Below are positions 27,151-46,405 of a DNA stretch of 64,000 nt, in pieces. Position 1 is the first letter of the stretch; each line of letters opens with the position of its first letter. Origin of the DNA: Bacteroidales bacterium. GTDB taxonomy: Bacteria > Bacteroidota > Bacteroidia > Bacteroidales > FEN-979. A program made the position numbers and the translations under genes. The stretch is from positions 17,286 through 81,285 of the forward strand of contig JALNZC010000013.1 of NCBI GenBank assembly GCA_023229525.1, in the 5' to 3' direction. The notes beneath the pieces are model-generated. The model searched no databases. It saw only the letters and a list, made by a program, of their open reading frames with translations, and had not been told where the DNA came from.

Positions 27151-27606
27151 TTATTTGACTGCAAGGTTGGTTCTAAGCCTGATGTCAGCGGATGAACTTC
27201 CAACGCTAATTTCAAAATTACCCGGATCCACTTTCCATTGCTTATCTTTCACGTCATAGTATGCAAATGAACGGGAATTAAAGTGCATCGTCACCTTCTT
27301 CTCCTGTCCGGGATTCAGGACAACCTTAGCGAATCCTTTCAATTCTTTTACCGGGCGCGGTAACGGATTGTGGGTATCGGACACATATAGCTTAATGGTT
27401 TCACTGCCAGCAATGACATTCACCTCTGTGCGCTGCCATTCCTGGTTGTTGAGTGCAAAATGCTCGACGCTTGCAATCACACCCTGCGATTGAAGGGCTT
27501 TGATATAGCTAACGGCCAAACGGGAAGCCAGCCAGGGATCTTCTCCATAACTCTCAAAATTTCGGCCTCCGGCAGGGAACCGATGAATATTCACGCAGGG
27601 ACCCAA
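27151..27606 (-). pseudogene. glycoside hydrolase family 3 (beta-glucosidase) remnant, 5'-truncated with a large internal deletion
   Basis: The 151-aa ORF joins a GH3 N-domain fragment (GPCVNIHRFPAGGRNFESYGEDPWL ... EHFALNNQEWQR) directly to the C-terminal Fn3-like domain (LYV...PVKELKGFAKVVLNPGQEK...VGSSSADIR). A stop codon lies immediately upstream of the TTG start. Confidence 0.7.
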
Positions 27607-30228: not shown

Positions 30229-30614
30229 AATTAATCCTCGTTAAAAATTATTATTCGAATGTATTTCTATCCAAATTTCTTCGGAACTCAAGATTTGGCG
30301 GGGCAAATCTTGAATATTATTGTCGGCCGTTTTGATTAAACTCCCGGATAAAGATCCGTCGATGACAAAGTTAATATAAAAACACCTAATTGAATATTTA
30401 GATATGTAAAATATTCACCTCATTACCAGTTTGGTCCTGATCCCGGATGCACCCTCTTCCATCGCAGAAACAGGCCATTTAAAAATCAGTATTGAAGACA
30501 GGATCACATTTCGTTAAGGTAGTTGCTGAAGATAAAACCGAGATGGTCAAATTGATCAAAATGAGGTAAGATAATTATCCAATCCCCGTTTACTTTTCAA
30601 ATGAAGGAAGTAGC

Positions 30615-31502
30615 CTACCGGTTATAGTTTCTTTCGGAATGACATCCCGGGGCGCATGTACCGCCGTTCTCCTGTGATACGAAATGGATGGGCATTTCCC
30701 ATTTACCGAAAGGAACCTTTTCGGCGATCAGTTGTGGGTTTAAGGCTCCGTGGACATTGTGGCAACTGATGCAGGTTCTGCTTTTACTGCCTTGGAGATG
30801 AAGATAATGCAGATTCTGCGTGCCACTCCTGAAACCCGTAGCAGTTCCGGTAGTTTTCAGCAGGAGCAAATCGCTGTTGTGGCAGGTAAAACAGACCAGG
30901 AAGTTTTCCTTGTGTGCTGAAGTATAAATCCCCTCGGGGAATGAACCATTCAGGATGAACGGGTTTGATGATCCGTGGGGCGTGTGACAGGCTGAACATC
31001 CCGGATTGGTTTTTCCACCGTGGAAATAGGTGCTGTTGATCACGTTCTTGCGGATATTCATAATGGGTTTGTTATCGGCGGTGACCGACTTGTTATGGCA
31101 GGTGAGGCAGGTTTTTGTCTCTTCGGCCAGCAGCAGTTTCTTTTCTGCTGATGCATGCGGAGAGTGGCAGTTCATGCAATTCTTCTCAGCAGTCACTGGT
31201 GGATGGGGGTGAGTGGCTTCTTGTGTAGCGGCCTGAATGTCGTCGTGGCAACTGAAGCATAGATCCGGGGTTTGTGCAGCCAGGGAGAAGCCTTTTTCTC
31301 CTTGGGAAGGGTGGGTATTACCGTTAGGCTTATGACAAATTCCGCAATTTTTTACAGCTGCTACATGTTTATACTCAGGTTCCATCAATTTTGAATGACA
31401 TTCGAGGCAATCCTGTGGATTTTTATACGGGACGGAGCTAAATACCAGGTTCAGTCTGGCCATATCAAACACAATAAAGATCATGACCAGGGAGAGTCTC
31501 AT
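30615..31502 (-). CDS. multihaem c-type cytochrome (8 CXXCH + 1 CX3CH)
   Basis: 295 aa with a hydrophobic N-terminus. Motifs are CLECH, CGICH, CFSCH, CMNCH, CLTCH, CSACH, CFTCH, CISCH plus C-terminal CAPGCH. The start overlaps the upstream barrel gene stop (ATGA at 31499-31502). Confidence 0.9.
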   Translation of the reverse strand: MRLSLVMIFIVFDMARLNLVFSSVPYKNPQDCLECHSKLMEPEYKHVAAVKNCGICHKPNGNTHPSQGEKGFSLAAQTPDLCFSCHDDIQAATQEATHPHPPVTAEKNCMNCHSPHASAEKKLLLAEETKTCLTCHNKSVTADNKPIMNIRKNVINSTYFHGGKTNPGCSACHTPHGSSNPFILNGSFPEGIYTSAHKENFLVCFTCHNSDLLLLKTTGTATGFRSGTQNLHYLHLQGSKSRTCISCHNVHGALNPQLIAEKVPFGKWEMPIHFVSQENGGTCAPGCHSERNYNR

Positions 31503-33466
31503 TTCCTGTACCAGTTAAAGTTTCTCACTATTTGAATAAATCCGCCCACATAATTGGTTTGCTCATGGAGATAATCACGCCGGAACACCTCCACGCCAAC
31601 TTTAAAGAATATCTGACGGAAAAGTGTGGTGAACTGGACACGACCGGTTAACAGGTTAAGGTCGATCTGCTGGCCTATTTGTTTACGATAACCGAATTCT
31701 ACGGAAAGAGTACTTTGATGCGCAAACTGGTATCCAACATTCCCGGTCACATCAATGAACTGCTGGCGTGTATTCTCAGCCGTCAGGTTGTAATCGCGCA
31801 TGTTCCCGCTGAGCGAAATGGTAACCTTGTATCCTAAATTTCCCTGCAGCTGTGCCCAATAACGGATAAGACGGTAGGGCACGATCGTACTCTGGTAATT
31901 CTCGAATTCCACACCGCCACTGGCAAACTTGTACTCAAGACGGCAGCCGTAAGTAGTTTGGGTGAAATAGTTCAAGGTAAGGTACTCCGCGGTTGTCAGG
32001 TTTGAATACCCCTGGTCGGCCCACTTGAAATATATCTCAAACAGGCGGTTGAAGAACGACACGCTGGCGTTGATGCATTGAAAATTGACATCATACTGAT
32101 AAGACCCCGGGAGCATGGCAACATAATCAACGTATACGCTCCCTTTATTTGGAATTTGTCCACCCGGCATACGCTGGATTTCCAGGAACGTGTTGCGCTG
32201 GATCAACACATAATCGAAATTGGGCTCATAGATGATCGTTCCGGTAACATCCTTCACAACTACCGAATTGAGATCAATATTGGCCTGGTTTAGCAAGGTC
32301 ATCTGACCGTCAGTAAGCACGTGCTCTTCGTGCAGGATAGGCTGGGGAACAGGTTCACTTGTATGTTTCTGACGTTGCCAATTATAAGTATAACCCAGCA
32401 TCAACCTGCCTTTTAAGGGGATTTTCTTCTCATAGTTTATATTGATACCCGCGATAAGGTTATTCTCTTTATAAAATGTATGACGGATCTGGTTATATTC
32501 CAGCGACAATCCCGAATTGAGGCTTTCGTACAACCGGTGACGCAGCATGGCCCGGATCGCATTCTGATTCATTTCCTGCGAATCCCTGCGGTAATCGTAA
32601 AAGTTATAACTTGTGCTTAAGCTGAAGCGTTTTGGGAGGTTCAGGTTTATGCTTTCATCTACCTGGATCCTGCGAAAAACGTCGGAGCCCCGCTGATCGA
32701 TACCGGAAATTGCTGAGATAAAGCTGTAATTGCGCTTTTTATCGAAGGAAATAGTATTGTTGAGACTCAGGTTATCGGAGATATTCCTTGATTCAGCGAT
32801 GTTTACATCATTCCTTGAATAGTCATTGTGAAAATAAATGAGTTGGCTGTTATCATAAGCAGAAAAGGATTTGTCGATCCGTGCCTGGATGGTTTGCTGT
32901 TGGGTGATGAATGAACGACCGGTAAGGATCTCAGTTTCGTACCATTTCCCCTGTTGGTAAGAGGCCTGGATGGGAAGGATCTTGTTCATCCAGATAAAAT
33001 TACCTCCAAAGTTGATGGTATTTGAGTGGATATTTGATAGGTTTTCACGACTGGTGTATACATTGTTATAGTTGAAAAAACCACTGAAGTTAATGGTCTT
33101 CTGGCGAAAGAAAGTGAGGGTGGCATCCAGTTTTTCCATAGTTCGTACCTCAGCCTGGTCGGGGATGACGAGAAAAAGATCCTTTCCGATAACCGGGTTG
33201 AATTCTCCGCCCAGGTGGAGCGAGATAAAATCAGGATGAATGAAATAACTGTCGGTGTTAAGTAGTATCCCACCATAAAACCGTGAACTTTCTTGGGTGT
33301 TGTAGATCTCGTTGGAATATCCGGCCTGGTAACGGTAATCGGCCCCAAGTTTCACAGCGCCATTTATCGAGTTGAGCGCCCAGAACCTCCGGGAAATGGA
33401 ATAATTCTGGGATAATCCCAGTGCGGGCAAAAGCAGCATTATGCAAAAAAAACGCAAGCCTTTCAT
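31499..33466 (-). CDS. large outer-membrane beta-barrel protein (candidate porin of a porin-cytochrome complex)
   Basis: 655 aa with a signal peptide (MLLLPALGLSQ) and no Cys-haem motifs. Tyr/Asn/Ser/Gly-rich with alternating amphipathic strand-like segments throughout. Sandwiched between two multihaem cytochrome genes. Confidence 0.65.
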   Translation of the reverse strand: MKGLRFFCIMLLLPALGLSQNYSISRRFWALNSINGAVKLGADYRYQAGYSNEIYNTQESSRFYGGILLNTDSYFIHPDFISLHLGGEFNPVIGKDLFLVIPDQAEVRTMEKLDATLTFFRQKTINFSGFFNYNNVYTSRENLSNIHSNTINFGGNFIWMNKILPIQASYQQGKWYETEILTGRSFITQQQTIQARIDKSFSAYDNSQLIYFHNDYSRNDVNIAESRNISDNLSLNNTISFDKKRNYSFISAISGIDQRGSDVFRRIQVDESINLNLPKRFSLSTSYNFYDYRRDSQEMNQNAIRAMLRHRLYESLNSGLSLEYNQIRHTFYKENNLIAGININYEKKIPLKGRLMLGYTYNWQRQKHTSEPVPQPILHEEHVLTDGQMTLLNQANIDLNSVVVKDVTGTIIYEPNFDYVLIQRNTFLEIQRMPGGQIPNKGSVYVDYVAMLPGSYQYDVNFQCINASVSFFNRLFEIYFKWADQGYSNLTTAEYLTLNYFTQTTYGCRLEYKFASGGVEFENYQSTIVPYRLIRYWAQLQGNLGYKVTISLSGNMRDYNLTAENTRQQFIDVTGNVGYQFAHQSTLSVEFGYRKQIGQQIDLNLLTGRVQFTTLFRQIFFKVGVEVFRRDYLHEQTNYVGGFIQIVRNFNWYRK

Positions 33467-33480
33467 CCCTTATTCCTGTT

Positions 33481-34035
33481 TCAGTTTAAAAAATACCGTT
33501 TATTCCCACCATGTGGATTATGACAAGTTGTACATGGCGATTCACCGATCTTCTCATGCTCCGGAGTTGCAAGGATACGGTCTGATTCATGGCAAGTGAA
33601 GCATAGCGCTTGTCCTGTTCGCAAAAGCAATTTTGGGTTCTCCGAATTGTGTGGGCTATGGCATTTGGTACAATTACCGGAGACCACTGGTCCATGCTCG
33701 AATTTCCCGTCATACGCATCATGACACTGATAGCAAAGACCAGGTTGAGGTTCGATCATGTTCCCAGGACGGTTGGGATCGTGACATACCCCGCATTTTT
33801 TAAGGGCAAACGGTGGATGTGCCGGGTGCTTCGATGCAGCAGTATTGGCAGCCAGTTCATTTAACAGGGCGGAATCCGATTTATTTCCGGTCTGTTTTGC
33901 AACCATTTTAACCGAATCATTCTTTTCGGGCACACCGTCGAAGAAGACAGTAAGCATCCTGTGCGAACATCCCAGTAAAAAGGAAAAAATGATCACTATC
34001 AGAGAAAGAGATATGTTTTTTTTTACCGGTGTCAT
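33481..34035 (-). CDS. pentahaem c-type cytochrome lipoprotein
   Basis: 184 aa with a lipobox (FSFLLGCS). Motifs are CGVCH, CYQCH, CTKCH, CFTCH, CTTCH. Confidence 0.9.
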   Translation of the reverse strand: MTPVKKNISLSLIVIIFSFLLGCSHRMLTVFFDGVPEKNDSVKMVAKQTGNKSDSALLNELAANTAASKHPAHPPFALKKCGVCHDPNRPGNMIEPQPGLCYQCHDAYDGKFEHGPVVSGNCTKCHSPHNSENPKLLLRTGQALCFTCHESDRILATPEHEKIGESPCTTCHNPHGGNKRYFLN

Positions 34036-34046
34036 CGTTATGTGTT

Positions 34047-35116
34047 TTATTTCGGGCTGATTGCACCGTACACATTGATCTTGTCGGGTCCGTATTGGTT
34101 GGTTACAAAGATGAGATAGTTAAGATTGTAAGCCTGATCCACATATTTATGGAAGTATTTCAGATTGTCATAATCGATGGTCACCTTTGCCGGAAGCCAC
34201 ATATCACCGGGGCCTTGATAAGGTCCGCCGAAAAAGAGCAGTACGCGACCAGTTTTATCAAAAATCTGCGTATTCTCGAAACTTGCATCCACCACATACA
34301 GGTTCTCTTTTTTATCTACGGCGATACCTTTGGGTCGTGCAAACTGGCCAAGGCCGCTCCCGTTGCTTCCCACAGATGACAAGTATTTCCCATCATGGGT
34401 ATAGGTCTTACATTAAAATCACCGATATCACTTACATAAACCTTATCGGGTGTAACATAAATGTTGGCCGGAGAATAAAGGTAACCAGGCTGACCCTGTT
34501 CGGCGTCAGGGAACGTATAGAGAAGTTCACGGGTATTCTTTTTATAAACGTTGATCCTGTTGTTTTTGATATTGGTTACCCAGATCGTATCGCCGGTCAC
34601 AAAGACATCGGTCGGCTTAAATTTATCGGTCTCGCCAAAAGCGCCTATATAGGTTCCGTCCGCTTCAAAGACAACTACTTGCATTCGAATTCCATCGGCA
34701 ACATATAGTTTTCCGGTATCGTCCACGAAACAATTGAGTGGAAGTTTGAGTTTCCCGTTGCCTATCGGTTCGAAATAGGTGAAGGTATTTTTCTCAAGGT
34801 CGATCACTTCAATGAGACCCATGCCTGTATCACAGATATAGATCTTTCCTCCATGCATAGCAATACCGTATGGTTTTTTAATCGGCTTTACCGGGGATTC
34901 GCCAAAAATGAACCGCGAAAATGCTGATTGTTTACCGGTGCTGTTCTCGGAACTGCTGAAAGAAGTCAGAAACTGGATCCTTGCTGTGTCTGGCGGGGGT
35001 GGGTAGGTAACCACTACTTTAAAGGTGGACGTTTTATGCAAACGCCTCGAGCAACCTGAAAAAAGCAGGAATAGGATTCCCGGGATCAGCAATACGGTAA
35101 GAATTTTTCTGTACAT
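34047..35116 (-). pseudogene. NHL-repeat beta-propeller lipoprotein, interrupted by a 1-nt frameshift (or assembly error)
   Basis: ORFs 34316..35116 and 34047..34382 overlap in different frames. Joined at about 34407-34411 they read ...VYVSDIGDFNV/KTYTHDGKYLSSVGSNGSGLGQFARPKGIAVD..., a continuous NHL repeat paralogous to the 40787..41794 protein. Lipobox LLFSGCS. Confidence 0.7.
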
Positions 35117-35145
35117 GGTTAGCTACGTTTCCCAAAAATGATTAA

Positions 35146-35172
35146 TTGGAGGGGATTAAATGGCCCTTCCAA
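35146..35172 (-). terminator. intra-operon hairpin (attenuator or partial terminator) after the tetrahaem cytochrome gene
   Basis: On the minus strand, TTGGAAGGG-loop-CCCCTCCAA (8/9 paired), followed by TTAATCATTTTT. Lies between the cytochrome stop (35206) and the NHL start (35116). Confidence 0.45.
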
Positions 35173-35205
35173 ATCATTGCTTCAACAGATAAAAATGATA
35201 AAAAT

Positions 35206-35835
35206 TTATTTGTTATGGCAGGTAAGGCAGAGGGCACTGGCGACATTGGTCTTCCGTAGCAGGTGCGCAATTCCGGTTCCGTTGTGTACATTGTGACAGG
35301 ATGCACATTCCAGTTTGTTATTGAACAACATGGTCTGTGAAATGGTTCCGGTACCGATTCCTGAAGGATGGGTAGTAGGATTCCACAGACCGGGGTCGGC
35401 TGCTGCCAGCGCAGCGTCGAAAACAAAGGAGATCGGGTGGTCATTCCGCAGATCAGTTCCCACATTGTTGACCGTTGTGATAAAATGAGTCCCGTTTGTT
35501 GTACCACCGAAGTTTTCGAGGGCTACGGTGCCGTCGTGGCAACTCAGACAGAGTTTCGAACTGCCGCTGGGTTGTGTAATGGTTGCTGCTCCGTTAAATG
35601 TCGGACTGGTGTATAGCTGGAAGGTTGCGGTAGTAGATCTGTGGTTCCATAGCGGAGCATCCGGAATGGTGATATCCGCATTGTGCGGTGTGTGACAGCA
35701 GATGCAAATCTGTTGGGTAGTATTCCAGGTCTGCGCTGAAAAATCGTGAGCAGAACCTACGATGGTTTGCCCTAAACCAACATTAACAAGAAAGAAAAAT
35801 GCCGGCAATGCAGTTAATAGTTTCTTGATTTTCAT
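35206..35835 (-). CDS. tetrahaem c-type cytochrome (secreted)
   Basis: 209 aa with a Sec signal (FFFLVNVGLGQ). Motifs are CICCH, CLSCH, CASCH, CLTCH. Colinear similarity to residues about 20-205 of the 559-aa cytochrome (PLWN, CLSCHDGT.AL, NDHP.SF.(Y/F)DA.LAAAD). Confidence 0.9.
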   Translation of the reverse strand: MKIKKLLTALPAFFFLVNVGLGQTIVGSAHDFSAQTWNTTQQICICCHTPHNADITIPDAPLWNHRSTTATFQLYTSPTFNGAATITQPSGSSKLCLSCHDGTVALENFGGTTNGTHFITTVNNVGTDLRNDHPISFVFDAALAAADPGLWNPTTHPSGIGTGTISQTMLFNNKLECASCHNVHNGTGIAHLLRKTNVASALCLTCHNK

Positions 35836-35936
35836 TTTTAGATTGTTTGTTAGTTTGTTTAATTGATATAATTTGAATTGATTATGAGCTCATTAATGTA
35901 ATTTGACAAAACCATTTTTATACTCCGGTAGGGCGA

Positions 35937-35954
35937 AGTCAAAGATTATGCCAA
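35937..35954 (-). promoter_or_regulatory. candidate sigma-54-type promoter (TTGGCAT-N5-TTTGACT, minus strand)
   Basis: The reverse complement of AGTCAAAGATTATGCCAA has GG/-12 spacing matching TGGCAC-N5-TTGC, except the -12 element reads TTGA. It lies about 100 nt upstream of the cytochrome ATG (35835). A 13/17-identical copy occurs at 41877-41894. Confidence 0.35.
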
Positions 35955-36204
35955 AAACAATAATAATAGGGATGGATGGCTATACGGCTATTATTTTTGC
36001 CCGGATTGAGTAAAAATTATAACAGGACAGTAGTTGTAAATGCCACAAATTTAATTACATAATAAATGTTTTCCAGATTATTTTCATATCCTGGAAGTTT
36101 ATCGTTTTTCTTTGGAAAAACAAGAGATCGAAAGAGTAACCGGAATATAAAATCCGGGTGGGTCAATTCACTCAATCCGGGGTGGGGCAAATTACCCAAC
36201 TGCC

Positions 36205-37584
36205 TCATAGACTGTATTTCTTCATCTTATAACGGAGGGTATCACGGGTAATCCCAAGCAATCTGGCCGCCCGGGTCTGATTTTGGCTGGTCTTTTTCAG
36301 TGCAGTGATGATGGTCTGTTTCTCAATGTCATACAATGATGTGCCTTCGGCGAAGAATCCTCCCACTTCTTCGGATGCACGTTGCAAAGGTTTCTGTTCC
36401 TCTTTAAGTTTCACCATTTCGGCAGGCAGGCTTTCAGCATGGATAATATCGCTTGTTTCAAGAATGACAGCCCGTTCGATAACATTGCGCAATTCCCGTA
36501 TATTTCCAGGCCAGTTGTACATTTCAAGAAGTTGTTTGGCCGCAGGATCGATCATCTGGATATTTTTTCTGAAGCGGGAATTGAAATATCTAAGGAAATG
36601 ATCGGAAAGTAATGGGATATCCTCCGTATGTTCACGCAGTGGCGGGATGATGATGCGGAAAACCGTAAGACGGTAATACAGATCTTCGCGAAAGGTCTTC
36701 TCTTCAATGGAACGTTTCATGTCTTTGTTGGTCGCGGCGATGATGCGGATGTCGACCGGAATATCGGCAGTACCGCTGATCCGGCGGATCACCCTGTTTT
36801 CGATTACGCCGAGAAGTTTCACCTGGGTAGCCTGGTTGATCTCCCCGATCTCATCCAGGAAAACGGTGCCTCCTTCAGCCATCTCGAACAGTCCTTTCTT
36901 AAGTTTTTTTGCATCGGTAAAAGCCCCCTGTTCATGACCGAAAAGTTCGCTCTCCAGCAGTGTTTCGGGGAGCGAGGAGCAATTGATTGTGACAAAGGGC
37001 TTACTGGCCCGGCTGCTTTCGTTGTGGATAGCGTGCGCGAAAAGGTCTTTCCCCGTGCCACTTTCACCCAGCAGCAGAATGGTGGTGGTATTGATCCGGG
37101 CTATCTTCTTCGACAACTGGATGATCTTGAGAATTTCGGGTGAGCGGCCGACAATATGGTCGAAGGTGACTTTTTCCTTGTGTTGCCGCCTGAGCAACTG
37201 AACCTCGTTGTTGACGCTGATCTTCTCCCGGATTATGTCTATAATAGCATAGATTTCCTTGAAGGAAAAGGGTTTGTTTATATATTCCTGGGCCCCGAGT
37301 TTCATTGCCTTGACCGCGGTATCGATCGAACCGTAAGCAGTCATAAAAACAATGTTGGTATCCTCGTGCATGGCCCGGATTCGTGTGATCACCTCCAGCC
37401 CCTGGATACCAGGGAGTTTATTGTCGACAAAGGTAATGTCGGGAAACTGTGATTCAAAGAGCTGCAGCCCCTCTTCCCCGCTCTCGGCGGTAAACACGGA
37501 ATATCCCTGCGCCTTCAATTTTTTTTCAAATGACCAGCGAATCAGCTGTTCATCATCGATCACCAATATTTTCAAAGTTTGCAT
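36205..37584 (-). CDS. sigma-54-dependent response regulator (NtrC family: REC-AAA+-Fis HTH)
   Basis: Receiver (ILVIDDE ... DNKLPGIQG), AAA+ Walker A GESGTGKDL, GAFTGA-type loop (GAFTDA) and a C-terminal HTH (RAARLLGITRDTLRYKMKKY). Confidence 0.95.
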   Translation of the reverse strand: MQTLKILVIDDEQLIRWSFEKKLKAQGYSVFTAESGEEGLQLFESQFPDITFVDNKLPGIQGLEVITRIRAMHEDTNIVFMTAYGSIDTAVKAMKLGAQEYINKPFSFKEIYAIIDIIREKISVNNEVQLLRRQHKEKVTFDHIVGRSPEILKIIQLSKKIARINTTTILLLGESGTGKDLFAHAIHNESSRASKPFVTINCSSLPETLLESELFGHEQGAFTDAKKLKKGLFEMAEGGTVFLDEIGEINQATQVKLLGVIENRVIRRISGTADIPVDIRIIAATNKDMKRSIEEKTFREDLYYRLTVFRIIIPPLREHTEDIPLLSDHFLRYFNSRFRKNIQMIDPAAKQLLEMYNWPGNIRELRNVIERAVILETSDIIHAESLPAEMVKLKEEQKPLQRASEEVGGFFAEGTSLYDIEKQTIITALKKTSQNQTRAARLLGITRDTLRYKMKKYSL

Positions 37585-37620
37585 CTAAAGGTATTGGTTC
37601 ATCCAACAAACGGGAACTTG

Positions 37621-39075
37621 CTAATTTACCGGAAGAGAAATATAGAATGTGCAGCCTTTGTCAGGATTGTTCTCAACCCTGATCTCCCCCTGGTGCATAT
37701 CAATGATCTCCTTGACAATGGCCAATCCAAGACCCGTTCCCTGGGTCCGGGTGGTGTAAAAGGGTTTGAAGATATCCGGCAGTTTGTCCTCAGGAATACC
37801 GATACCGGTATCCCTGACCGCGATTTGTACCTTTTTCCCGGCAGCCGACCAGGAGGTCTCATAAGTGATGGTGCCACGTACATCCGATGCCTGCACTGCA
37901 TTCAAACCCAGGTTCAGCAGCACATTCTCCACCTGTTCCGGGTCGAAATAAAAGAGCGGTATATCTTTGCCCAATTCCACCTTGAAATTAATCTTTTTAT
38001 TGATAGCCTGATTCTCAAGAAAAAAAACAACCGATTTAATAATTTCATTGATGTCGGCTTCCTGTGGATTAAGATCCTTCGAGCGGGAGTAGTTGAGGAG
38101 GTTTGAAACTGCTTTATTCACGCGGTTTGCCTGTCGCTGGATCTCCTCAAGTACCGGTTTATTTTCGGTATCCTTGGTTTCCTCAATAATAATTTCAATG
38201 GCATTCGCTATTCCGGTGATCGGGTTGCGGATTTCGTGGGCCAGCCGGGCCGACATCTCCCCGATAGTGGCCAGTTTCTGTGAAGTCCTGATCTCCTGTT
38301 GATGGTATTTCTGAAGCTCATTCTGTGTCTGCTGGAAATGTCCCACCATTTCGTTGAAACTTTTTCCCAACCGGCCCAATTCGGTTGACTTCGGGATAGT
38401 AAGTCGTTCGTTGAGGTTCCCCTGGTTAATGACATTGATGGCCTTTTGGAACTCAGAAAGCGACTTCCTGACGATCTTGTAATGGAGGGTTAAAACAAAC
38501 CCGAGAACAAGTAAGATCAGGATCACCGTGAAGATAAAGCTGAACTGACGGGTGAAAGCAATGGTGTCGCCCGGGGAGTGCATGGCGAAATCGATTCCGA
38601 TATACCCCAGGATGGGTTTGGTAGATGCATGACAATTATAGCAGGTCGGACTGTTTTTCAGGCGGATGATAGCCCGGGAAAAAGGAACGTTTGCATCCTG
38701 GAATGTCGTCAGGGTGATGTCGTTAGGTAAGGACGCAAGCTTCCGAAGGTTAATGGTATCGAATTCATTCGGATTGAATTGGGAAGGGTATAGCACTTTC
38801 CCATCGGCATCAATTAAATAAGAATGAATAACCTGCCCGTTCTTGTCAAGCTGACGCAGACTTGGTTTGATGATCCGGCCGTCATGCACGGCTACGATCT
38901 GGCCCTTCATCAGAGTGAGTACCGACAAAATATCCTCTTTTGCATTCTCGTAGATCTTTTTGCTGAGGTAATAATTATAGATGTAAAAAGAGAAGAAGGA
39001 CATTACCGTAATGACCACGATGATGGTTGTTACAATTTTAAACCGGAAGGAGGTAAAATTAATTTCTATTTTCAT
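37621..39075 (-). CDS. sensor histidine kinase with a periplasmic domain carrying a c-type haem-binding motif
   Basis: TM1 (IVTTIIVVITVMSFFSFYIY), an extracytoplasmic domain of about 150 aa containing SPTCYNCHAS, TM2 (FSFIFTVILILLVLGFVLTL), HAMP, H-box LAHEIRNPITG and G-box GTGLGLAIV. Confidence 0.9.
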   Translation of the reverse strand: MKIEINFTSFRFKIVTTIIVVITVMSFFSFYIYNYYLSKKIYENAKEDILSVLTLMKGQIVAVHDGRIIKPSLRQLDKNGQVIHSYLIDADGKVLYPSQFNPNEFDTINLRKLASLPNDITLTTFQDANVPFSRAIIRLKNSPTCYNCHASTKPILGYIGIDFAMHSPGDTIAFTRQFSFIFTVILILLVLGFVLTLHYKIVRKSLSEFQKAINVINQGNLNERLTIPKSTELGRLGKSFNEMVGHFQQTQNELQKYHQQEIRTSQKLATIGEMSARLAHEIRNPITGIANAIEIIIEETKDTENKPVLEEIQRQANRVNKAVSNLLNYSRSKDLNPQEADINEIIKSVVFFLENQAINKKINFKVELGKDIPLFYFDPEQVENVLLNLGLNAVQASDVRGTITYETSWSAAGKKVQIAVRDTGIGIPEDKLPDIFKPFYTTRTQGTGLGLAIVKEIIDMHQGEIRVENNPDKGCTFYISLPVN

Positions 39076-39107
39076 TCAATCCTGCATTAAAAAACGTTTT
39101 TTTAGGA

Positions 39108-40787
39108 TCAGTAAGTTTCAGGGTTATGATTTTCCCCATGGCATACAAGCCGGCAGCTGCCATGACGGACCCCGGTATCTGTGAACTGGATGATCCCTCC
39201 GGAAGGACTTACCACAGCGGTATTAAAATTAACGAGGTTGGAGTTGTTCGTTGTCGTGCCGGGACTGCCTATACCATGTGCATCATGGCAGACATTGCAG
39301 GGTGTGCGCTCTTCTACGATATGTAAACGATGTCTCGGGAAGCTATTGATATTGTTGATAATGTTGTTCCGGTTATGACAGGTGTAGCAAAGAGCATAGG
39401 CAGCGGCCGATTCCGTGGTATTATCGGCTGTAAGGTACTGTGCTTTCATGATATGTGGATAGATCGATCCGTGGGGGCCGGCCGGAGAACCGGTACCATC
39501 ACTGGCGTGACAGGCGGTACAGTAAATTACAGTGGAGGCCGTATTGGGTGCGATCAGATTCCCTGTGATCTCCGTATTGTTCCGTGGTCCGACCACCGGA
39601 TGGAACGAGGGGTTAGTCGTGGCAAATTCAAGACGTACATTGTTTTGTACGATAACGCGGGGAGAGGCCGGTGGGGCCATCCCTGGAGTATTGGTATGAC
39701 AACGGTAACAGATCTGGTACTCGTAAACAGCCGGGTTTACCTGACTCCCATTCTGGTCGATCCCTTTTACACCGGTGATAAAGCCATTCACGTTGGGCGC
39801 CACAGCCGTGGTATTGTTGGCCTGGTGGGCATTATGACAGTCGGTGCACTCTACATGGTTTGTGCTCACCAGCGCATTCTCAACAGGGTCGTGAATCCCT
39901 TGGTAGCCATATACATTGTGCTTGTAGGTTTTTGCAGCTTGAGCCTGGATGTTCTTAACTGCCACGTTTCCATTATGGCAATCGAGGCAGTTATTTTCCT
40001 CGGGAAGCCAATCCATCAAACGGAGTTTCCCGGCGGCGGAATGGGGATTATGACAGTTTTCGCACCCATTATCGGCAACTGTAGTATACGGGCTATGGAA
40101 CCAGGGATTGGGGGCGACGCCATTCCAGGTGCTGGTTGAGTTACGGTGGCTTGCAGTAACCCAATTTGCAGGTGTATGGCAAACAAGACAAAGGTTCGAT
40201 GCCTGTGTAGTAGCCACGAGAAAAGCTGAATAGATATTCTTGTGTGGATCATGACAGGAGGTACACTGGAGTTTACCGTTCTCCAACTTTACAGGACCGG
40301 TGAGGGTAGCCGGATTCACCAGTTGTCCGTCGGCGGCTGCGAGTGTAGCATCATAGATAAACGAGAGCGGGTGGTCGTTGGAGATATCCTTGGTGAGGTT
40401 GCTCACCCCAGTAGGCATTGTCGTAACGCCGCCAGCCATGATAATCGGCGTTGTACGGCTGATGATGCTTCCAAGGGCAATGGTACCATCGTGACAGGAG
40501 AGACAGAGGATCGATGCCCCGTCGGGTTGTCCGAGAATAGCCTGTGTAGTGGAACTGGCATAAAGGGTATAGGTTAGTCCCGGGTCAGACCGGTTCCACA
40601 GGGGGTGATCCGGCCGTGAATTATGAGGTGCATGGCAAAAAATGCATATTTCGGATTCTGTAGTTGCTTTGATGGCGCCGGGTCCACTTACCGACAGGTT
40701 ATGCTTTGTGGATACTATGGTTTGTGAATAAACAGCCAGCGGTATCCAGAACAACTGCAGCAGGCTGATCTTCAGTAGTCTAATCAT
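39108..40787 (-). CDS. multihaem c-type cytochrome (11 CXXCH + 1 CX3CH)
   Basis: 559 aa with a Sec signal. Motifs are CIFCH, CLSCH, CTSCH, CLVCH, CENCH, CLDCH, CTDCH, CYRCH, CTACH, CYTCH, CNVCH plus C-terminal CRLVCH. The start overlaps the upstream NHL gene stop (TAATG). Confidence 0.9.
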   Translation of the reverse strand: MIRLLKISLLQLFWIPLAVYSQTIVSTKHNLSVSGPGAIKATTESEICIFCHAPHNSRPDHPLWNRSDPGLTYTLYASSTTQAILGQPDGASILCLSCHDGTIALGSIISRTTPIIMAGGVTTMPTGVSNLTKDISNDHPLSFIYDATLAAADGQLVNPATLTGPVKLENGKLQCTSCHDPHKNIYSAFLVATTQASNLCLVCHTPANWVTASHRNSTSTWNGVAPNPWFHSPYTTVADNGCENCHNPHSAAGKLRLMDWLPEENNCLDCHNGNVAVKNIQAQAAKTYKHNVYGYQGIHDPVENALVSTNHVECTDCHNAHQANNTTAVAPNVNGFITGVKGIDQNGSQVNPAVYEYQICYRCHTNTPGMAPPASPRVIVQNNVRLEFATTNPSFHPVVGPRNNTEITGNLIAPNTASTVIYCTACHASDGTGSPAGPHGSIYPHIMKAQYLTADNTTESAAAYALCYTCHNRNNIINNINSFPRHRLHIVEERTPCNVCHDAHGIGSPGTTTNNSNLVNFNTAVVSPSGGIIQFTDTGVRHGSCRLVCHGENHNPETY

Positions 40788-41794
40788 TACTTTCCTCCGT
40801 TCATGAGTTGAAATACCTGTATTCTCGAATTATAGCTATCAGCAATATAGATCTGGTCGCGATTATCAATATAAATACCAGAGGGCATCCAGAACTCCAT
40901 GTTCCCGTGTCCGCGTGTACCAAAGGTGTATAGTAACTGCCCCTGCGGGTTAAAGATCTGTACGGCGCTGAACAGGGCATCAGCAATATAAATATTGCCG
41001 TAGGAGTCAGTGGCGATCCCTTTCGGACGGGCGAAATCGCCACTGCCGTCACCAGGTTTACCGAACTGAGAGATGAATTCGCCATCAGCGGAAAAGATCT
41101 GAATGCGAAAATTCAAGGCATCCACGATATATACTTTGCCATTCCTGTCGACCCACACTGAGGTTGGATAATTGAATTCACCAGGTGCAGTGCCTCTTTT
41201 CCCGAACCGTTTCAACACTTTCCCATATTCATCCAGCACTGATACCCGGTGGGCATTGGTCTCCACCAACCAGATCCGGTGATCCGACGGCACCCAGGCT
41301 ATCCCTGTAGGCCGGTCGAAAGTGGAGTCGGTAAGCAGTGTGAGCGACTTTTTATCCGGTGTACATAAAAAAATCTTATTATAATAGGAATCGGTGAAAA
41401 GAAAACTATTTTCCTTGAAAGGTGTAATACCTACCAGGGAGGGGAAATTTTTGTACTTTTTATTTCTGAAGTGGGTTATTTCACCCACTTTGTCTTTCAC
41501 CTTGAAGATCACCCCGTTCTCCTGGTCAAGTACATACAAAGAAAGGGAATCCTTTGCAATAACACCTACCGGACGTGTTAGTTCCATTGAGTTTTTTTTA
41601 CCCAGAATGAGTTCGGCGATGCGTGTACCGAGACTGCGTTTTGGTTTTTCATTGGCAAGTGGAGGATATTGAGATATCCAGGCAATATAAGGCGAATCCT
41701 CAACCTTTCGGACAAACTCCTGCGCCCGAGCCTGAAACACGCCACAGGTATAAATTATGATAAACAGGATGATGATTATTCTGTTAGTTTGCAT
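40787..41794 (-). CDS. NHL-repeat six-bladed beta-propeller protein (secreted)
   Basis: 335 aa with a signal peptide. Repeated NHL units, e.g. GEFNYPTSVWVDRNGKVYIVDALNFRIQIF, GDFARPKGIATDSYGNIYIADALFSAVQIF, MEFWMPSGIYIDNRDQIYIADSYNSRIQVF. Confidence 0.9.
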   Translation of the reverse strand: MQTNRIIIILFIIIYTCGVFQARAQEFVRKVEDSPYIAWISQYPPLANEKPKRSLGTRIAELILGKKNSMELTRPVGVIAKDSLSLYVLDQENGVIFKVKDKVGEITHFRNKKYKNFPSLVGITPFKENSFLFTDSYYNKIFLCTPDKKSLTLLTDSTFDRPTGIAWVPSDHRIWLVETNAHRVSVLDEYGKVLKRFGKRGTAPGEFNYPTSVWVDRNGKVYIVDALNFRIQIFSADGEFISQFGKPGDGSGDFARPKGIATDSYGNIYIADALFSAVQIFNPQGQLLYTFGTRGHGNMEFWMPSGIYIDNRDQIYIADSYNSRIQVFQLMNGGK

Positions 41795-41876
41795 CAGATC
41801 CGGGAGGGTTTTTTACAGGTAATCCGGAGATCGTCCGGGTTTCAATTCTTAACAAAATTAGAATTTTGTTGCAACT

Positions 41877-41894
41877 AGTCAAATTTAGTGCCAA
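41877..41894 (-). promoter_or_regulatory. candidate promoter for the NHL-cytochrome-kinase-regulator operon (TTGGCAC-N5-TTTGACT; alternatively a sigma-A -33/-7 promoter)
   Basis: The minus strand reads TTGGCACTAAATTTGACT, about 83 nt upstream of the ATG at 41794. The same TTTG is followed after 19 nt by TAATTTTG (a perfect TAnnTTTG), so a housekeeping promoter is an equally good reading. Confidence 0.35.
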
Positions 41895-41987
41895 ACAATA
41901 GAAATAGCGAAAGGAGAATACGATAAGTCCACAATACAATATTTTATTATCTTTTTCGTACTTTTATCTGGATTGAATATTAAAAAC

Positions 41988-44900
41988 ATGAAAAAAATAC
42001 CTACCCTGCTTTTCTCTTCACAGATGACCCTTTTGCTTTTGATGATCTTTGCCATAGCTATCGGGTCGGCCACTTTCATCGAGGAAAAATTTGACATAGT
42101 TACGGCTCGCCTATTGGTATACGATGCCTGGTGGTTCGAACTTGTGCTGTTGCTTCTCGCCCTCAATTTCATAGGGAATATCAGTCGATATAAGCTTTGG
42201 CGCAGAGAGAAGATATCAATCCTGTTATTTCATCTTGCGTTCATTCTCCTGATCCTCGGAGCAGGGATCACCCGTTACCTGGGTTTTGAAGGGATGATGC
42301 ATATACGGGAAGGGAATTCTTCACGGGTCATATATAGCTCCACTCCCTATCTTCAGGTGAATGCGACCGGGAAGGATTTCGATTTCTCTTTGAATAAACC
42401 CCTTCTATTCAGTGAGATGGTTCCTAACCGGTTCAGTTTTGGATTCGACACCAGGGGGAAGGGAAAGATTTCAGTTTCTTTCCATGATTATATGAAGAAT
42501 GCCGTATCACGGATCAATGAAAATGTAAGGGGAGGTACAACGATTGTTCAGATGGTCCTTGCCGCTTCGGAAGGCAGAGAAACAGTGCTCATCGAAAAAG
42601 GAGAGATTGTGGATCTGGGAAATGCTGTGATCGCGTACGAAAATAACAACCGGAAGGATGCCATCCGGCTTTCGGAAAGAAATGGGAAACTTTTTCTCTC
42701 ATCACCCTCCGGTATCGTGATGTCGTTCATGCATGGTATGGGCAGTACCAGTGATACTACTGTTAATCCACCGGTGACAGATACCATACAGGAATTTAAG
42801 GCAGGTTATATTTATAGTACTCAGGATGTCCTGCTGCTTTTCGTTAAACGATTTACCGGCGCTGAAAAAGAGTTGGTCCGTGGAAAGGCCAATGACCAGG
42901 GTTCCGAGGTGCTTTTCGTGGATGTGGCCTTTGAAGGCAAAACCCGCACTGTTCCTTTGTTCGTCGGCACAGGATACAATACGGCTGTAAAAGAACTCAA
43001 TCTGGATGGGGTTAGAATGAAACTCGCATACGGAAACAAAGAAATTACCTTACCCTTCTCCCTTCAGCTCGACGATTTCATCCTTGACCGCTATGCAGGA
43101 TCAATGAGCCCATCCTCATATGCCAGCGAGGTCACCCTCATCGATAGCGAAAGGAATCTCCGGGAAAAACGGCGGATATATATGAACCATGTGCTTGATC
43201 ACCGGGGCTACCGTTTTTTTCAGTCCTCATACGATATGGATGAAAAAGGGACGGTGCTTTCGGTGAACCACGACCGGGCAGGAACATGGGTCTCTTACGC
43301 CGGGTACATCCTGCTGGCAATCGGTTTCATCGGCACACTTTTCAACAAAAACTCCAGATTTCGCATCCTTAGCAAAGCAATCGACCGGATCCGGTCGGAA
43401 CGGAAGGCAGGGATCATGGTCACCCTTTTCTTCTTCCTTTTTGCCTCTGTTTCCTGCTTTGCCCAGCAAGAAACTGTTCAGCCATACGTCGGGGCCGATC
43501 ATGCGGAGAAATTCGGACACCTGTTGGTGCAGACTTTCGATGGACGTTTTGAACCGATTCATACCCTGGCCTACGATGTGATGCATAAAATTTCACGAAA
43601 GGACCAAATTCACACCGACAAAAAGGGCGATATGGATGCAATCCAGGTTTTCATGGATATGCTTATGGATCCCGAATACTGGAAACACCAGAAGATCATC
43701 TATGTGCGTGAAAAAGCTGTGAGGGATATCCTTGGTGTAGGCGGACAATATGCCTGTTTTTATGATTTTGTCGACCAGCAGTCGAACTACAAACTTTCCT
43801 CCTTTGCTGAAAAAGCCTTCCGCAAGAGACCTGCAGAGCAGAATGCTTTCGATAAGGAAATCATCAAAGCGGATGAACGGATCAACATATGGATGAGCGT
43901 TCAAAACGGTTCATTGCTCAAGATCTTCCCGGAGCAAAACGCGATCAATCACGGGTGGATCAGTTTTGTTGATACATTGGCCCGAGTGCCCCTCACCGGG
44001 AAATTGCGCGATATAAACAGCGATCTTCCCCTGAATCAGTTAGATTATAACAATTTAATGCGTTATTACCTTCAGGCTGTTTATGACGGCGCCCGGACGG
44101 GTGACTATACAAATGCCGACCTCGTGCTGAAGCACCTGGAAAGTACCCAGCGGGAAGGAACCCCCGAAAATCTTTTACCAACCATTTCCAAAATAAATAC
44201 AGAGATATGGTATAATAAATCGCAGATCTTTATAACACTACGGAATATTTACGGAGTACTCAGTCTGTTCCTGCTCGTGTTTGCCTTTGCGGAAAACCTT
44301 CGATCACGCAAGAGCCGTTTCGTTTCCTGGACATTAAATTTACTGACGATTGTGCTCGGTGCAGCATTTTTATACCACACCTGGGGTATGGCGCTCCGGT
44401 GGTATCTCACCGGACATGCCCCCTGGAGTAACGGTTATGAGGCATTGTTGTTGGTCGCCTGGGGAAGTCTCCTGGCCGGATTCTGTTTCATGAAATACTC
44501 CCGGATCACGCTGGCGGCCACAGCAGTACTTGCTTTTATGGTACTAATGACGGCAGGTCACAGCAGTTACGATCCACAGCTGACCAACCTTCAACCTGTG
44601 CTGAAATCCTATTGGCTGATCGTACATGTAGCGGTGATCACCGTAAGTTATGGATTCCTGGCGCTTGGTTTTTTACTTGGGCTGATCAATATGTTCATCT
44701 TTCTTTTCAAAACGAAAATCCAAGCCTTCCGCCTCGACCTGATTATCAGGGAGCTGACCCTGACCAACGAAATGACGCTGATCATCGGAATTGTGCTGGC
44801 GACCATCGGTACCTTTCTTGGCGGTGTCTGGGCCAATGAATCCTGGGGCCGGTACTGGGGCTGGGATGCCAAGGAAACATGGGCGTTGGTCATCGTGATC

Positions 44901-45155
44901 ACCTACGCGATTATCTTGCATCTTAGATTCGTTCCAGGGTTAAAGGGAAATTTTATTTTCAACATAGCGTCAGTGATTGGTTTCGGAAGTGTGATCATGA
45001 CTTTTGTCGGGGTTAATTATTATCTTTCGAAAGGACTTCACAGTTATGCTGCTGACGATAAAAAGGTGTTTCCTTTGTGGGGTTGGGGATTAATTCTGGG
45101 GATAATCTTACTCATGATTGTGGCAGGTTATAGGGAACGTTTGTCGAAGAAATGA
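41988..45155 (+). CDS. ccsBA: fused System II cytochrome c biogenesis protein CcsBA (ResB-CcsA)
   Basis: 1055 aa from the ATG at 41988 (the ORF track begins at TTG 41973). The N-terminal part is ResB-like with TMs and a large soluble domain. The C-terminal part is CcsA-like with the Trp-rich WWD motif WGRYWGWDAKETWALV. Confidence 0.9.
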   Translation: MKKIPTLLFSSQMTLLLLMIFAIAIGSATFIEEKFDIVTARLLVYDAWWFELVLLLLALNFIGNISRYKLWRREKISILLFHLAFILLILGAGITRYLGFEGMMHIREGNSSRVIYSSTPYLQVNATGKDFDFSLNKPLLFSEMVPNRFSFGFDTRGKGKISVSFHDYMKNAVSRINENVRGGTTIVQMVLAASEGRETVLIEKGEIVDLGNAVIAYENNNRKDAIRLSERNGKLFLSSPSGIVMSFMHGMGSTSDTTVNPPVTDTIQEFKAGYIYSTQDVLLLFVKRFTGAEKELVRGKANDQGSEVLFVDVAFEGKTRTVPLFVGTGYNTAVKELNLDGVRMKLAYGNKEITLPFSLQLDDFILDRYAGSMSPSSYASEVTLIDSERNLREKRRIYMNHVLDHRGYRFFQSSYDMDEKGTVLSVNHDRAGTWVSYAGYILLAIGFIGTLFNKNSRFRILSKAIDRIRSERKAGIMVTLFFFLFASVSCFAQQETVQPYVGADHAEKFGHLLVQTFDGRFEPIHTLAYDVMHKISRKDQIHTDKKGDMDAIQVFMDMLMDPEYWKHQKIIYVREKAVRDILGVGGQYACFYDFVDQQSNYKLSSFAEKAFRKRPAEQNAFDKEIIKADERINIWMSVQNGSLLKIFPEQNAINHGWISFVDTLARVPLTGKLRDINSDLPLNQLDYNNLMRYYLQAVYDGARTGDYTNADLVLKHLESTQREGTPENLLPTISKINTEIWYNKSQIFITLRNIYGVLSLFLLVFAFAENLRSRKSRFVSWTLNLLTIVLGAAFLYHTWGMALRWYLTGHAPWSNGYEALLLVAWGSLLAGFCFMKYSRITLAATAVLAFMVLMTAGHSSYDPQLTNLQPVLKSYWLIVHVAVITVSYGFLALGFLLGLINMFIFLFKTKIQAFRLDLIIRELTLTNEMTLIIGIVLATIGTFLGGVWANESWGRYWGWDAKETWALVIVITYAIILHLRFVPGLKGNFIFNIASVIGFGSVIMTFVGVNYYLSKGLHSYAADDKKVFPLWGWGLILGIILLMIVAGYRERLSKK

Positions 45156-46405
45156 TCCTCTTAAAAAAGGCGTCCCACCATTATTTCCGATCAGTATTAC
45201 TCCACCGTTATTGGGACCCCTTCATTGGTTACAAATTGGGGTGGGATGGAAGGGGAAATAAGTTGGTTGAAGATGAAAATGAAAGTAAATGGTTACGATA
45301 CATCTTCACCGAATATTCAAAGGGGACATCCTTGAAGGATATCAAATCGACACTTCATGTAAATGGAATAAAGACACGAAGGGGTAATGATCTTTGGTCG
45401 ATGGGATCGTTACAGGTGATGTTAAGGAATGACATTTATATTGGTAATCAAGTTTTTGTGGATAAAAAGTCGAAGATTGTCATTCGTAACACCATTCCCC
45501 AATTGGTATCCAATACCCTTTGGGATGAAGTTCAACATAGACGAAATTCGATATTGGTAAGAAGAAACCAAGTCAACCGGACGAAGAAATTTTATCTGTT
45601 CCGGGACTTCCTGATTTGTAAATGTGGTACCCCTATGGGTGGAAGAAGTCGGATCGACAAAGGATTAAACCATTATTACTGTCCACTTCCGGAAAGGAAA
45701 TTCAATAACAATTATAAAAATGATGTCCACTGTGATATGAAACGGGGGTTGAACATCCCGACGACCAATGGTGTCCTTTGGAATAAAATCATCGACATTC
45801 TTTCTGATACGATGGAGTTGAAAAAGACTTTGACAAAAATGACAAACATCGGAAAATTGGGGAACTCAAAAGGTTTGAAGGTGGAAAGTAAATCAATTGA
45901 AGATAAAATTCGTAAACTACTGAAAGTCAAATCTGATATAGAAAAAGGGTTAGTCGAAGTCGAAACAAAAAAAATCTTACAAAAATACCCCTCAAATGAG
46001 GTTTACCAGTCTTTACGAAAATCTCTGACCAACTCGCTCAACCAGACCAAATCAGAAATTGAAAAATTAAGAAATTCACTTCAACAGATTGGGGATCAAC
46101 AATCTTGGTTTTTGTGGATTGAAACCTTCGGAAATGACATTAGTGAAAAAAGACACCTTCCGGATCCTTTAAAAAAAATATTATTAAAACAAGTATTGGA
46201 TTGTATAACTGTGGATTATGACTGGGTGGAGAAGGTTCATCGACTAAATATTTCCTTCAAAATACCCGTATTCACGGGTGATCGGGAGGACAAATATTCA
46301 CCAAATATACTTGTGCCTTCGGAAACCCTTGGTAATCAACCCGACCAACTTGTCCCCGTTGAAACCTACTCCACCGTTACCGATTTGGCCAGGTTTCGCG
46401 GTTGA
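45152..46405 (+). pseudogene. large serine recombinase remnant lacking the N-terminal resolvase catalytic domain
   Basis: The ORF begins at the recombinase-domain boundary (...IGYKLGWDGRGNKLVEDENESKWLRYIFTEYSKGTSLKDIKSTLHVNGIKTRRGNDLWSMGSLQVMLRNDIYIGN). It has a zinc-ribbon (FLICKCGTPMGG...YYCP) and a coiled-coil tail. No catalytic Ser domain is present. The last 40 nt run antisense into the glmS 3' end. Confidence 0.65.

Follow-up and report, generated by a model that had tools for sequence, protein, structure and literature searches.

The ten-gene island at positions 30615-45155 of a Bacteroidales metagenome-assembled genome (MAG) segment, which at its whole length of 64,000 nucleotides (nt) we call the window, is in our judgement rather probably an extracellular cytochrome ('nanowire') module of the omcE type, in its Bacteroidota/FCB-group form. 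Work on such nanowires has centred on Geobacter and Desulfuromonas, with two archaea besides. Two proteins of the island carry OmcE-type modules, the island fits the published definition of an omcE cluster gene for gene, and its core genes recur in conserved order across related genomes. From homology, synteny and predicted fold we infer that it serves filament formation and electron export. An earlier, sequence-only reading of this DNA had proposed extracellular electron transfer in a framing taken from MtrCAB and Pcc conduits; component-wise homology to the omcE cluster supports the direction of that proposal and not its MtrCAB/Pcc-like framing.

OmcE-type proteins and the gene set around them

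Nine of the ten genes lie on the minus strand, transcribed in the order N2, C12, HK, RR, a gap of 369 nt, E4, N1, L5, BAR and c9, and ccsBA is divergent from them. Lengths are given in amino acids (aa).

30615-31502, minus strand: c9, 295-aa periplasmic multihaem cytochrome, 8 CXXCH and 1 CX4CH, MtrA-like
31499-33466, minus strand: BAR, 655-aa predicted outer-membrane beta-barrel, Sec signal peptide
33481-34035, minus strand: L5, 184-aa pentahaem lipoprotein, lipobox LLGC, 5 CXXCH, Paired_CXXCH E 1.8e-28
34047-35116, minus strand: N1, NHL beta-propeller lipoprotein, lipobox FSGC, frameshifted, intact form 356 aa
35206-35835, minus strand: E4, 209-aa tetrahaem OmcE homologue, Sec signal peptide, 4 CXXCH
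36205-37584, minus strand: RR, 459-aa NtrC-type sigma-54-dependent response regulator
37621-39075, minus strand: HK, 484-aa sensor histidine kinase, two transmembrane segments, 1 CXXCH
39108-40787, minus strand: C12, 559-aa 12-haem cytochrome, 11 CXXCH and 1 CX4CH
40787-41794, minus strand: N2, 335-aa NHL beta-propeller, NHL E 2.6e-26, lipobox doubtful
41973-45155, plus strand: CcsBA, 1060-aa fused ResB-CcsB System II cytochrome c synthetase

E4 is a tetrahaem protein that belongs to the OmcE family, as judged from sequence homology over its full length. Against the OmcE filament of Geobacter sulfurreducens (PDB 7tfs_A), its residues 8-209 align on 9-232 with E 1.7e-27, and the match to 9yuq_N, one of the 16 chains of an entry that is probably the OmcE bundle of Desulfuromonas soudanensis, extends over the full length (E 7.7e-24). 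By the same kind of evidence, residues 1-205 of C12 are a second OmcE-like tetrahaem module, with residues 11-205 matching 7tfs at E 1.6e-33 and a profile match of E 1.5e-44. BLASTP identity to Desulfuromonadia OmcE is 36-41%; E4 shares 40-44% identity with the C12 head, and both share about 33% with Geobacter-type OmcE. E4 has its haem motifs at C44/C47/H48, C96/C99/H100, C177/C180/H181 and C203/C206/H207 and its distal histidines at H30, H51, H133 and H184. In an alignment of 238 sequences (73 E4-type proteins, 45 C12 heads and 120 Geobacter-type OmcE proteins), these eight ligand positions are kept in 66-73 of the 73 E4 orthologues and in every C12 head and Geobacter-type OmcE, and the same ligand set has been stated to be conserved in OmcE homologues (bioRxiv 10.1101/2025.10.22.684050). 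E4 would thus be the filament subunit.

Homology extends to the genes around E4. We compared the island with three Desulfuromonadia loci, one of them the omcE locus of G. sulfurreducens. Their genes run from resB-ccsB through cytochromes of 9 and then 8 haems, an NHL lipoprotein, omcE and (a second NHL lipoprotein) to a barrel candidate of 741-774 aa. c9 is 35-36% identical to the 9-haem cytochromes of these loci (332-370 aa; E 1e-49 to 1e-53), N2 shares 30-33% identity with the propeller encoded ahead of omcE (E 4e-44 to 5e-50), and N1 is 25-29% identical to either propeller (E 1e-24 to 3e-34); the similarity of L5 to both Desulfuromonadia cytochromes is at the level of repeats only (E 1e-14 to 5e-27). 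That Desulfuromonadia omcE loci encode NHL lipoproteins also bears out a neighbourhood to which the sequence-only reading had pointed.

The omcE cluster and its composition were described in October 2025: in its minimal form it comprises two multihaem cytochromes, two beta-propeller lipoproteins, OmcE and a large beta-barrel, beside resB/ccsB (bioRxiv 10.1101/2025.10.22.684050). In the island, the two multihaem cytochromes besides OmcE correspond to c9, which is homologous, and to L5, which is similar at repeat level; the two propeller lipoproteins correspond to N1, with a clear lipobox, and N2, with a doubtful one; the large barrel corresponds to BAR, and the adjacency of resB/ccsB to the divergent fused ccsBA. 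Shared with the known clusters are thus a barrel directly downstream, a homologous 9-haem cytochrome, adjoining ResB/CcsB and two homologous NHL propellers flanking the OmcE-type genes. CcsBA itself is a System II cytochrome c synthetase by its domain content, containing both ResB (PF05140, E 1.7e-22) and CcsA (Cytochrom_C_asm, PF01578, E 6.4e-34) domains; on TIGR03144 it scores 164 bits, under the cut-off of 187.6.

The layout of the island agrees in most respects with the sequence-only reading. All ten open reading frames (ORFs) were recovered at their coordinates and on their strands, the estimate of about 31 haem motifs resolves into 29 CXXCH and two CX4CH, and the operon-tight spacing is seen in overlaps of 1 nt (N2/C12) and 4 nt (BAR/c9) and in gaps of 11 and 14 nt. 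Profile searches of Pfam and NCBIfam returned the domains that it had assigned (NHL; Paired_CXXCH; HAMP-HisKA-HATPase; Response_reg-Sigma54_activat-HTH_8; ResB and Cytochrom_C_asm). In a six-frame translation of the window, 29 of the 32 CXXCH motifs fall in island genes and three lie elsewhere. What that reading had overlooked is the OmcE identity of the 4-haem protein and of the 12-haem head, and a frameshift in one of the ten genes, N1. In public records, the island proteins are named 'hypothetical protein' or 'cytochrome c3 family protein' (barrel accession MCK9422381.1, locus tag M0Q38_07270).

How widespread is this gene set? GTDB species-representative genomes scanned with BAR yielded 77 loci, in Bacteroidota, Calditrichota, 'Chlorobiota'/Melioribacteraceae and one Phycisphaeraceae; the Bacteroidota carriers belong to Bacteroidales, Lentimicrobiaceae, Rikenellaceae, Marinilabiliaceae, Lutibacter, Chitinophagales, Cyclobacteriaceae and Vicingaceae. 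The order E4-N1-L5-BAR-c9 is kept across loci, L5 standing directly upstream of BAR in 70 of the 77. N2 and C12 are always paired, upstream of this core in 20 loci and downstream of it in seven, and an N2-type gene directly precedes C12 in the gene orders of 50 of the 77 loci. Of the 29 loci whose 10-kb flanks are complete, 25 hold all seven genes (E4-N1-L5-BAR-c9 plus N2-C12), and co-occurrence across genomes, by which the sequence-only reading had suggested its proposal be checked, accordingly takes the form of a seven-gene set that recurs in synteny. About half of the loci have HK and RR, and in 15 of the 77 CcsBA is found no more than 10 kb away. Lutibacter profundi LP1, a cultured isolate, has the complete set together with CcsBA, its cluster lying at about 2.848-2.870 Mb of CP013355.1.

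Several loci depart from this arrangement. Eleven of them (L012, L013, L033, L051, L052, L056, L057, L060, L068, L070 and L073) encode, downstream of c9, additional OmcE-like paralogues of 216-246 aa that have five CXXCH motifs, and in some of these loci a third, distant NHL protein comes next. The paralogues are reminiscent of the '5-heme OmcE-like proteins' named in the description of the omcE cluster (bioRxiv 10.1101/2025.10.22.684050). The core module occurs in two or three copies in some genomes (L016/L019/L023 in one MAG, L043/L061 in another), and L036 carries two complete copies in tandem on a single contig. In L034, L048 and L066, the L5 position is filled by a larger protein (450-773 aa, 5 CXXCH), and no C12-type gene and no intact E4 were found; L034 and L066, which have full flanks, also gave no N2. 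The barrel/c9 conduit may thus exist without OmcE-type parts.

N1 is split into ORFs of 266 and 111 aa by a 1-nt deletion, AAA to AA, near position 34409. A near-identical JGI metagenome contig (L001) carries an intact N1 of 356 aa and differs over 1087 nt by one single-nucleotide polymorphism and one indel. N2 is likewise split in the complete genome of L. profundi and in L012, and the splits of N1 and N2 may be assembly errors or real decay.

Two ORFs near the island look incomplete. One (45152-46405, plus strand) overlaps the ccsBA stop codon (ATGA) and contains only the 'Recombinase' domain of large serine recombinases, without the N-terminal catalytic resolvase domain; it may be a mobile-element remnant at the island edge. 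The other (27151-27606, minus strand; 151 aa) encodes no more than part of a GH3 N-terminal domain, together with an Fn3-like domain, and is probably a gene fragment.

The predicted barrel conduit and the twelve-haem protein

The AlphaFold2 model of BAR (52 homologues; mean pLDDT 91.7) is a beta-barrel with a signal peptide, about 28-30 long strands and loops of 2-9 residues on both faces. Its single insert of about 70 residues (385-455) includes the most conserved sequence of the family, which numbers 2220 50%-identity representatives at E<=1e-3 and 715 at E<=1e-30. By textbook barrel geometry, a barrel of some 30 strands would be roughly 4 nm wide inside, with room for a folded cytochrome. 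No Pfam or NCBIfam family matched BAR, and Foldseek returned generic large barrels only, at 7-10% identity, the best TM-score being 0.45 to MtrB (6r2q_B). We also considered a TonB-dependent or SusC-type transporter. The lack of a Pfam hit, Foldseek TM-scores of 0.2-0.35 and the absence of an N-terminal plug, the strands beginning right after the signal peptide, argue against this assignment. The 655-aa barrel of the sequence-only reading is hence upheld by structure prediction, and BAR is no nutrient transporter of the TonB-dependent or SusC type.

The best solved match of c9 is 6r2q_A (E 5e-11), a chain that we take to be MtrA, listed under a different name. Across loci, the c9 position holds proteins of 287-729 aa with 8-26 CXXCH motifs, and in the closest relatives (L004-L006) c9 bears an N-terminal extension with 5-6 more haems; we regard the short c9 of the island as a natural length variant rather than a truncation. 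No remnants of further OmcE-like genes were found in the 386-nt gap after c9.

Conceivably, BAR and c9, with or without L5, form an MtrAB/Pcc-like wire that works without any filament, and E4 and C12 act as monomeric terminal reductases on the cell surface, like MtrC/OmcA or OmcB. The structural matches of c9 to 6r2q_A and of BAR to MtrB speak for such a porin-cytochrome conduit, as does residue range 356-504 of C12, which matches the MtrC/MtrF domain II/IV family PF22113 (E 8.2e-12; 45 bits, cut-off 30), and polymerisation of E4 is a prediction. However, E4 retains the full OmcE ligand set including the N-terminal histidine arm, and both experimentally examined OmcE proteins form filaments; the accessory genes, moreover, are of the omcE-cluster type and not of the mtr or pcc type, and neither the MtrB_PioB nor the DmsE family is reached at threshold. 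We consider a conduit of this kind unlikely, and the omcE-type module remains our preferred reading.

Among the components of that module, C12 is the most distinctive. Its tail is made of four 'paired CXXCH' units holding 8 haems, and the whole protein has 28 invariant histidines for 12 haems, four beyond need. Conservation exceeds that of the other cluster proteins compared: the top 120 database matches, from Bacteroidota, Ignavibacteria and Calditrichota, show at least 59% identity over the full length. A composition of three fused OmcE modules (12 haems as 3 x 4) was considered and rejected, as only residues 6-218 match the whole OmcE profile. If C12 joins the filament only via its OmcE-like head, it would sit at one end. 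We tentatively propose, and would not put it above a possibility, that C12 is a dedicated end subunit of the E4 nanowire, either a base plug into the barrel/c9 conduit or a reactive tip or stopper. One invariant spare histidine, H214, sits just past the OmcE module and could cap an otherwise unsatisfied interface haem.

Might the island instead encode a periplasmic reductase or an electron-storage network for a soluble substrate such as nitrite or sulfur or nitrogen oxyanions, with the barrel as substrate porin? Some proteins show weak, sub-threshold similarity to NrfB, NrfH and DmsE-type proteins, and the L. profundi cluster adjoins a module of NrfD, 4Fe-4S protein and cytochrome c. Nonetheless, Nrf-type scores are about 15-30 bits, against cut-offs of 134-184, no catalytic family was matched, the barrel, with its 28-30 strands, greatly exceeds a solute porin in size, and the NrfD module adjoins in only 2-3 of the 77 loci. 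Hallmarks of Nrf, HAO and Otr are lacking at threshold, just as the sequence-only reading had held, and no CXXCK motif occurs. We regard a reductase of this type as very improbable. The L. profundi module itself (L081, 4841-8689) lies directly upstream of the cluster and encodes a 4Fe-4S protein, an NrfD-type membrane protein, two small proteins and a mono-haem cytochrome c. It resembles NrfCD and alternative complex III (ACIII) and could be a quinol oxidase feeding the system; its scarcity next to other loci led us to reject a general link.

Predicted sigma-54 control

RR combines Response_reg, Sigma54_activat (E 2.5e-65), AAA_lid_14 and HTH_8 domains, and four candidate regulatory elements or element pairs accompany it in the island.

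35939-35953, minus strand: TGGCATAATCTTTGA, sigma-54-type -24/-12 element, about 105 nt upstream of the E4 start codon
36159-36174 and 36183-36198, no strand assigned: two tandem palindromes TGGGT-N6-ACCCA, directly after the RR stop codon
41472-41487, no strand assigned: TGGGTTATTTCACCCA, exact palindrome inside the N2 coding sequence, codons 104-108 (G-E-I-T-H)
41879-41893, minus strand: TGGCACTAAATTTGA, sigma-54-like -24/-12 element, about 85 nt upstream of N2

In close relatives, TGGCATAATCTTTGA is the sole conserved block in its part of the intergenic region, and a -24/-12 element upstream of E4 is found in 12 of 31 loci with the regulator as against one of 26 without it. One or two TGGGT-N6-ACCCA palindromes stand at the same place in 26 of 29 regulator-containing loci, 19 of which have two, spaced 22-24 bp; the background frequency of the motif is 0.086 per kb. 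We envision the tandem palindromes as binding sites of the sigma-54 activator, and the layout of palindromes and -24/-12 element is the one classically seen where an enhancer-binding protein acts on a sigma-54 promoter. A regulator, its cognate kinase, a predicted -24/-12 promoter and predicted upstream activator sites, the constituents of NtrC-type control, are thus all in place.

What HK might sense is suggested by its periplasmic CXXCH motif (C145/C148/H149), which is invariant in 27 orthologues; the periplasmic domain probably binds haem c. This domain matched no Pfam family and no solved structure. Given an invariant motif in a domain of no known family, haem-based redox sensing is a reasonable inference and no more than that, and the sequence-only reading, which had spoken of a haem-sensing system, is supported by the conserved motif and by nothing beyond it.

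The palindrome within N2 is present in 24 of 25 N2 orthologues from loci with HK and RR, where it reads TGGGTGAnATnnCCCA and the segment encodes (V/L)G(E/D)I(P/T)(H/Q). In 22 N2 orthologues from loci without HK and RR, by comparison, the same segment is variable in DNA and protein. It may therefore represent a putative operator of the regulator overprinted on a protein loop, for which autoregulation, a roadblock or a downstream enhancer may be envisaged as roles. Conservation of the element upstream of N2, TGGCACTAAATTTGA, is confined to the four closest relatives (L004, L005, L006 and L008). An Rfam scan of positions 30000-46500, including the 369-nt leader, gave no riboswitch or RNA family at E<=1. 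A hairpin past the E4 stop codon, considered as an attenuator that would ensure subunit excess, was discarded, its folding energy being no better than that of shuffles (z = 0.61).

A model for electron export and its relation to known systems

How might the island deliver electrons to the outside? We envision a scenario whereby CcsBA matures the roughly 30 haem sites, and MtrA-like c9 together with the lipoprotein L5 collects electrons in the periplasm and conducts them into the wide barrel, with its short loops, and across it. The barrel might double as exit and mounting site, so that E4 would leave through it or assemble on it. Outside the cell, E4 would polymerise, each subunit giving a histidine to the haem of its neighbour, and might thus generate a continuous haem wire with C12 at one end as base adaptor or reactive tip. 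Each OmcE-type gene has a propeller of its own (E4-N1 and N2-C12), and the propellers would probably be periplasmic holding or assembly factors. HK would phosphorylate RR, and phosphorylated RR might bind the two TGGGT-N6-ACCCA sites and fire the -24/-12 promoter of the E4-N1-L5-BAR-c9 operon. Candidate acceptors are Fe/Mn oxides, humics and partner cells.

The same machinery might also operate inwards, with Fe(II), a cathode or a syntrophic partner as electron donor. Multihaem wires are reversible, sequence does not fix the direction, and in Desulfovibrio ferrophilus clusters of NHL propellers and multihaem cytochromes have been tied to electron uptake from solid donors (PMC5815863). However, the window contains no Fe(II)-oxidation markers and no carbon-fixation context, and the homologous Geobacter systems are linked to the reduction of external acceptors (2025 review), and we hold inward operation to be improbable.

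Several observations weigh against an omcE-type export module. Polymerisation cannot be read from sequence, so that an E4 filament is a deduction: E4 is just 33-41% identical to known filament formers, and its inter-subunit bridging histidine is presumed to be the N-terminal one, by analogy with OmcS. Homology of BAR to the barrels of Desulfuromonadia omcE clusters went undetected in BLASTP (E 0.029), in hhalign (probability 0.3-0.4%), in a profile-versus-sequence search and with a hidden Markov model of 230 BAR-family members set against three Desulfuromonadia barrels (E 0.29 or worse), and a shared 'porin' role is consequently argued from position and fold class only. The AlphaFold2 model of C12 (42 homologues, without haems) reached a pLDDT of 38 and is unusable. 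The N1 copy of this assembly may be impaired by its frameshift. No inner-membrane quinol dehydrogenase or oxidase is encoded in the 64-kb window, within the island or outside it, and 'self-contained', as the sequence-only reading had called the module, does not hold. The FCB-group cluster members are known here from genes and models alone. Finally, the physiological role of OmcE is debated even in the model organism, and Geobacter can produce current and reduce Fe(III) oxide without OmcE (PMC13194489).

What does the island add to the picture of OmcE? Homologues of OmcE have been listed in five phyla, none of them Bacteroidota, Ignavibacteriota or Calditrichota (bioRxiv 10.1101/2025.10.22.684050), and for Bacteroidetes earlier metagenome work went no further than unclassified 'putative PCC' genes; in the literature searched we found no report linking OmcE to Bacteroidota or Ignavibacteria. 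As far as genes can tell, the new elements would be an omcE-type set that forms a conserved seven-gene module across FCB-group phyla, a barrel family in which no homology to the Geobacter-type barrel could be detected, the C12 fusion, and a dedicated circuit of CXXCH kinase and sigma-54 regulator. Bacteroidota and allied phyla may accordingly use minerals or partner cells as extracellular electron acceptors. If so, many Bacteroidota of sediments, groundwater and digesters, usually seen as fermenters, could respire minerals or humics, or connect electrically to partner cells. In the C12 fusion there would then be a concrete candidate for the start or end of a filament or for its connection to the cell, the palindrome/sigma-54 circuit would offer a handle for inducing the system, and L. 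profundi LP1 would be a cultured test organism.

Next to the known omcE clusters, the island stands out by several features. It adds a 12-haem protein with an OmcE head, which known OmcE operons lack (bioRxiv 10.1101/2025.10.22.684050), and has a 5-haem lipoprotein in place of the 8-haem cytochrome; its barrel belongs to the separate BAR family, its gene order is rearranged into two units, the CXXCH kinase and sigma-54 regulator are inserted, ResB and CcsB are fused, glycosylation genes are missing, and its host phyla lie outside the five of the preprint.

MtrCAB, Pcc and Ext conduits resemble the island in pairing a large barrel with an MtrA-like cytochrome and a multihaem lipoprotein. MtrB has 26 strands, compared with about 28-30 in BAR. 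In the profiles that define these systems, by contrast, DmsE/MtrA TIGR03508 gives 72 bits against a cut-off of 192, L5 reaches 16.8 bits on PF22113 against a cut-off of 30, and MtrB_PioB gave no hit; moreover, the extracellular partner is OmcE-like and not MtrC-like. In the Geobacter osc cluster, the companion of omcS (Shen et al. 2025, Cell Chem Biol 32:239, as cited in PMC13194489 and bioRxiv 10.1101/2025.10.22.684050), a filament cytochrome is reportedly encoded together with dedicated folding, secretion and porin-like proteins, which is the same concept as we envision here; OmcS itself is hexahaem and has minimal sequence similarity to OmcE (2025 review). A further likeness is found in D. 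ferrophilus IS5, in which multihaem cytochromes are co-expressed with NHL-repeat beta-propellers and have been proposed to form an outer-membrane electron-transfer complex; that system, likened to the island by description only, was studied for electron uptake in a sulfate reducer (PMC5815863).

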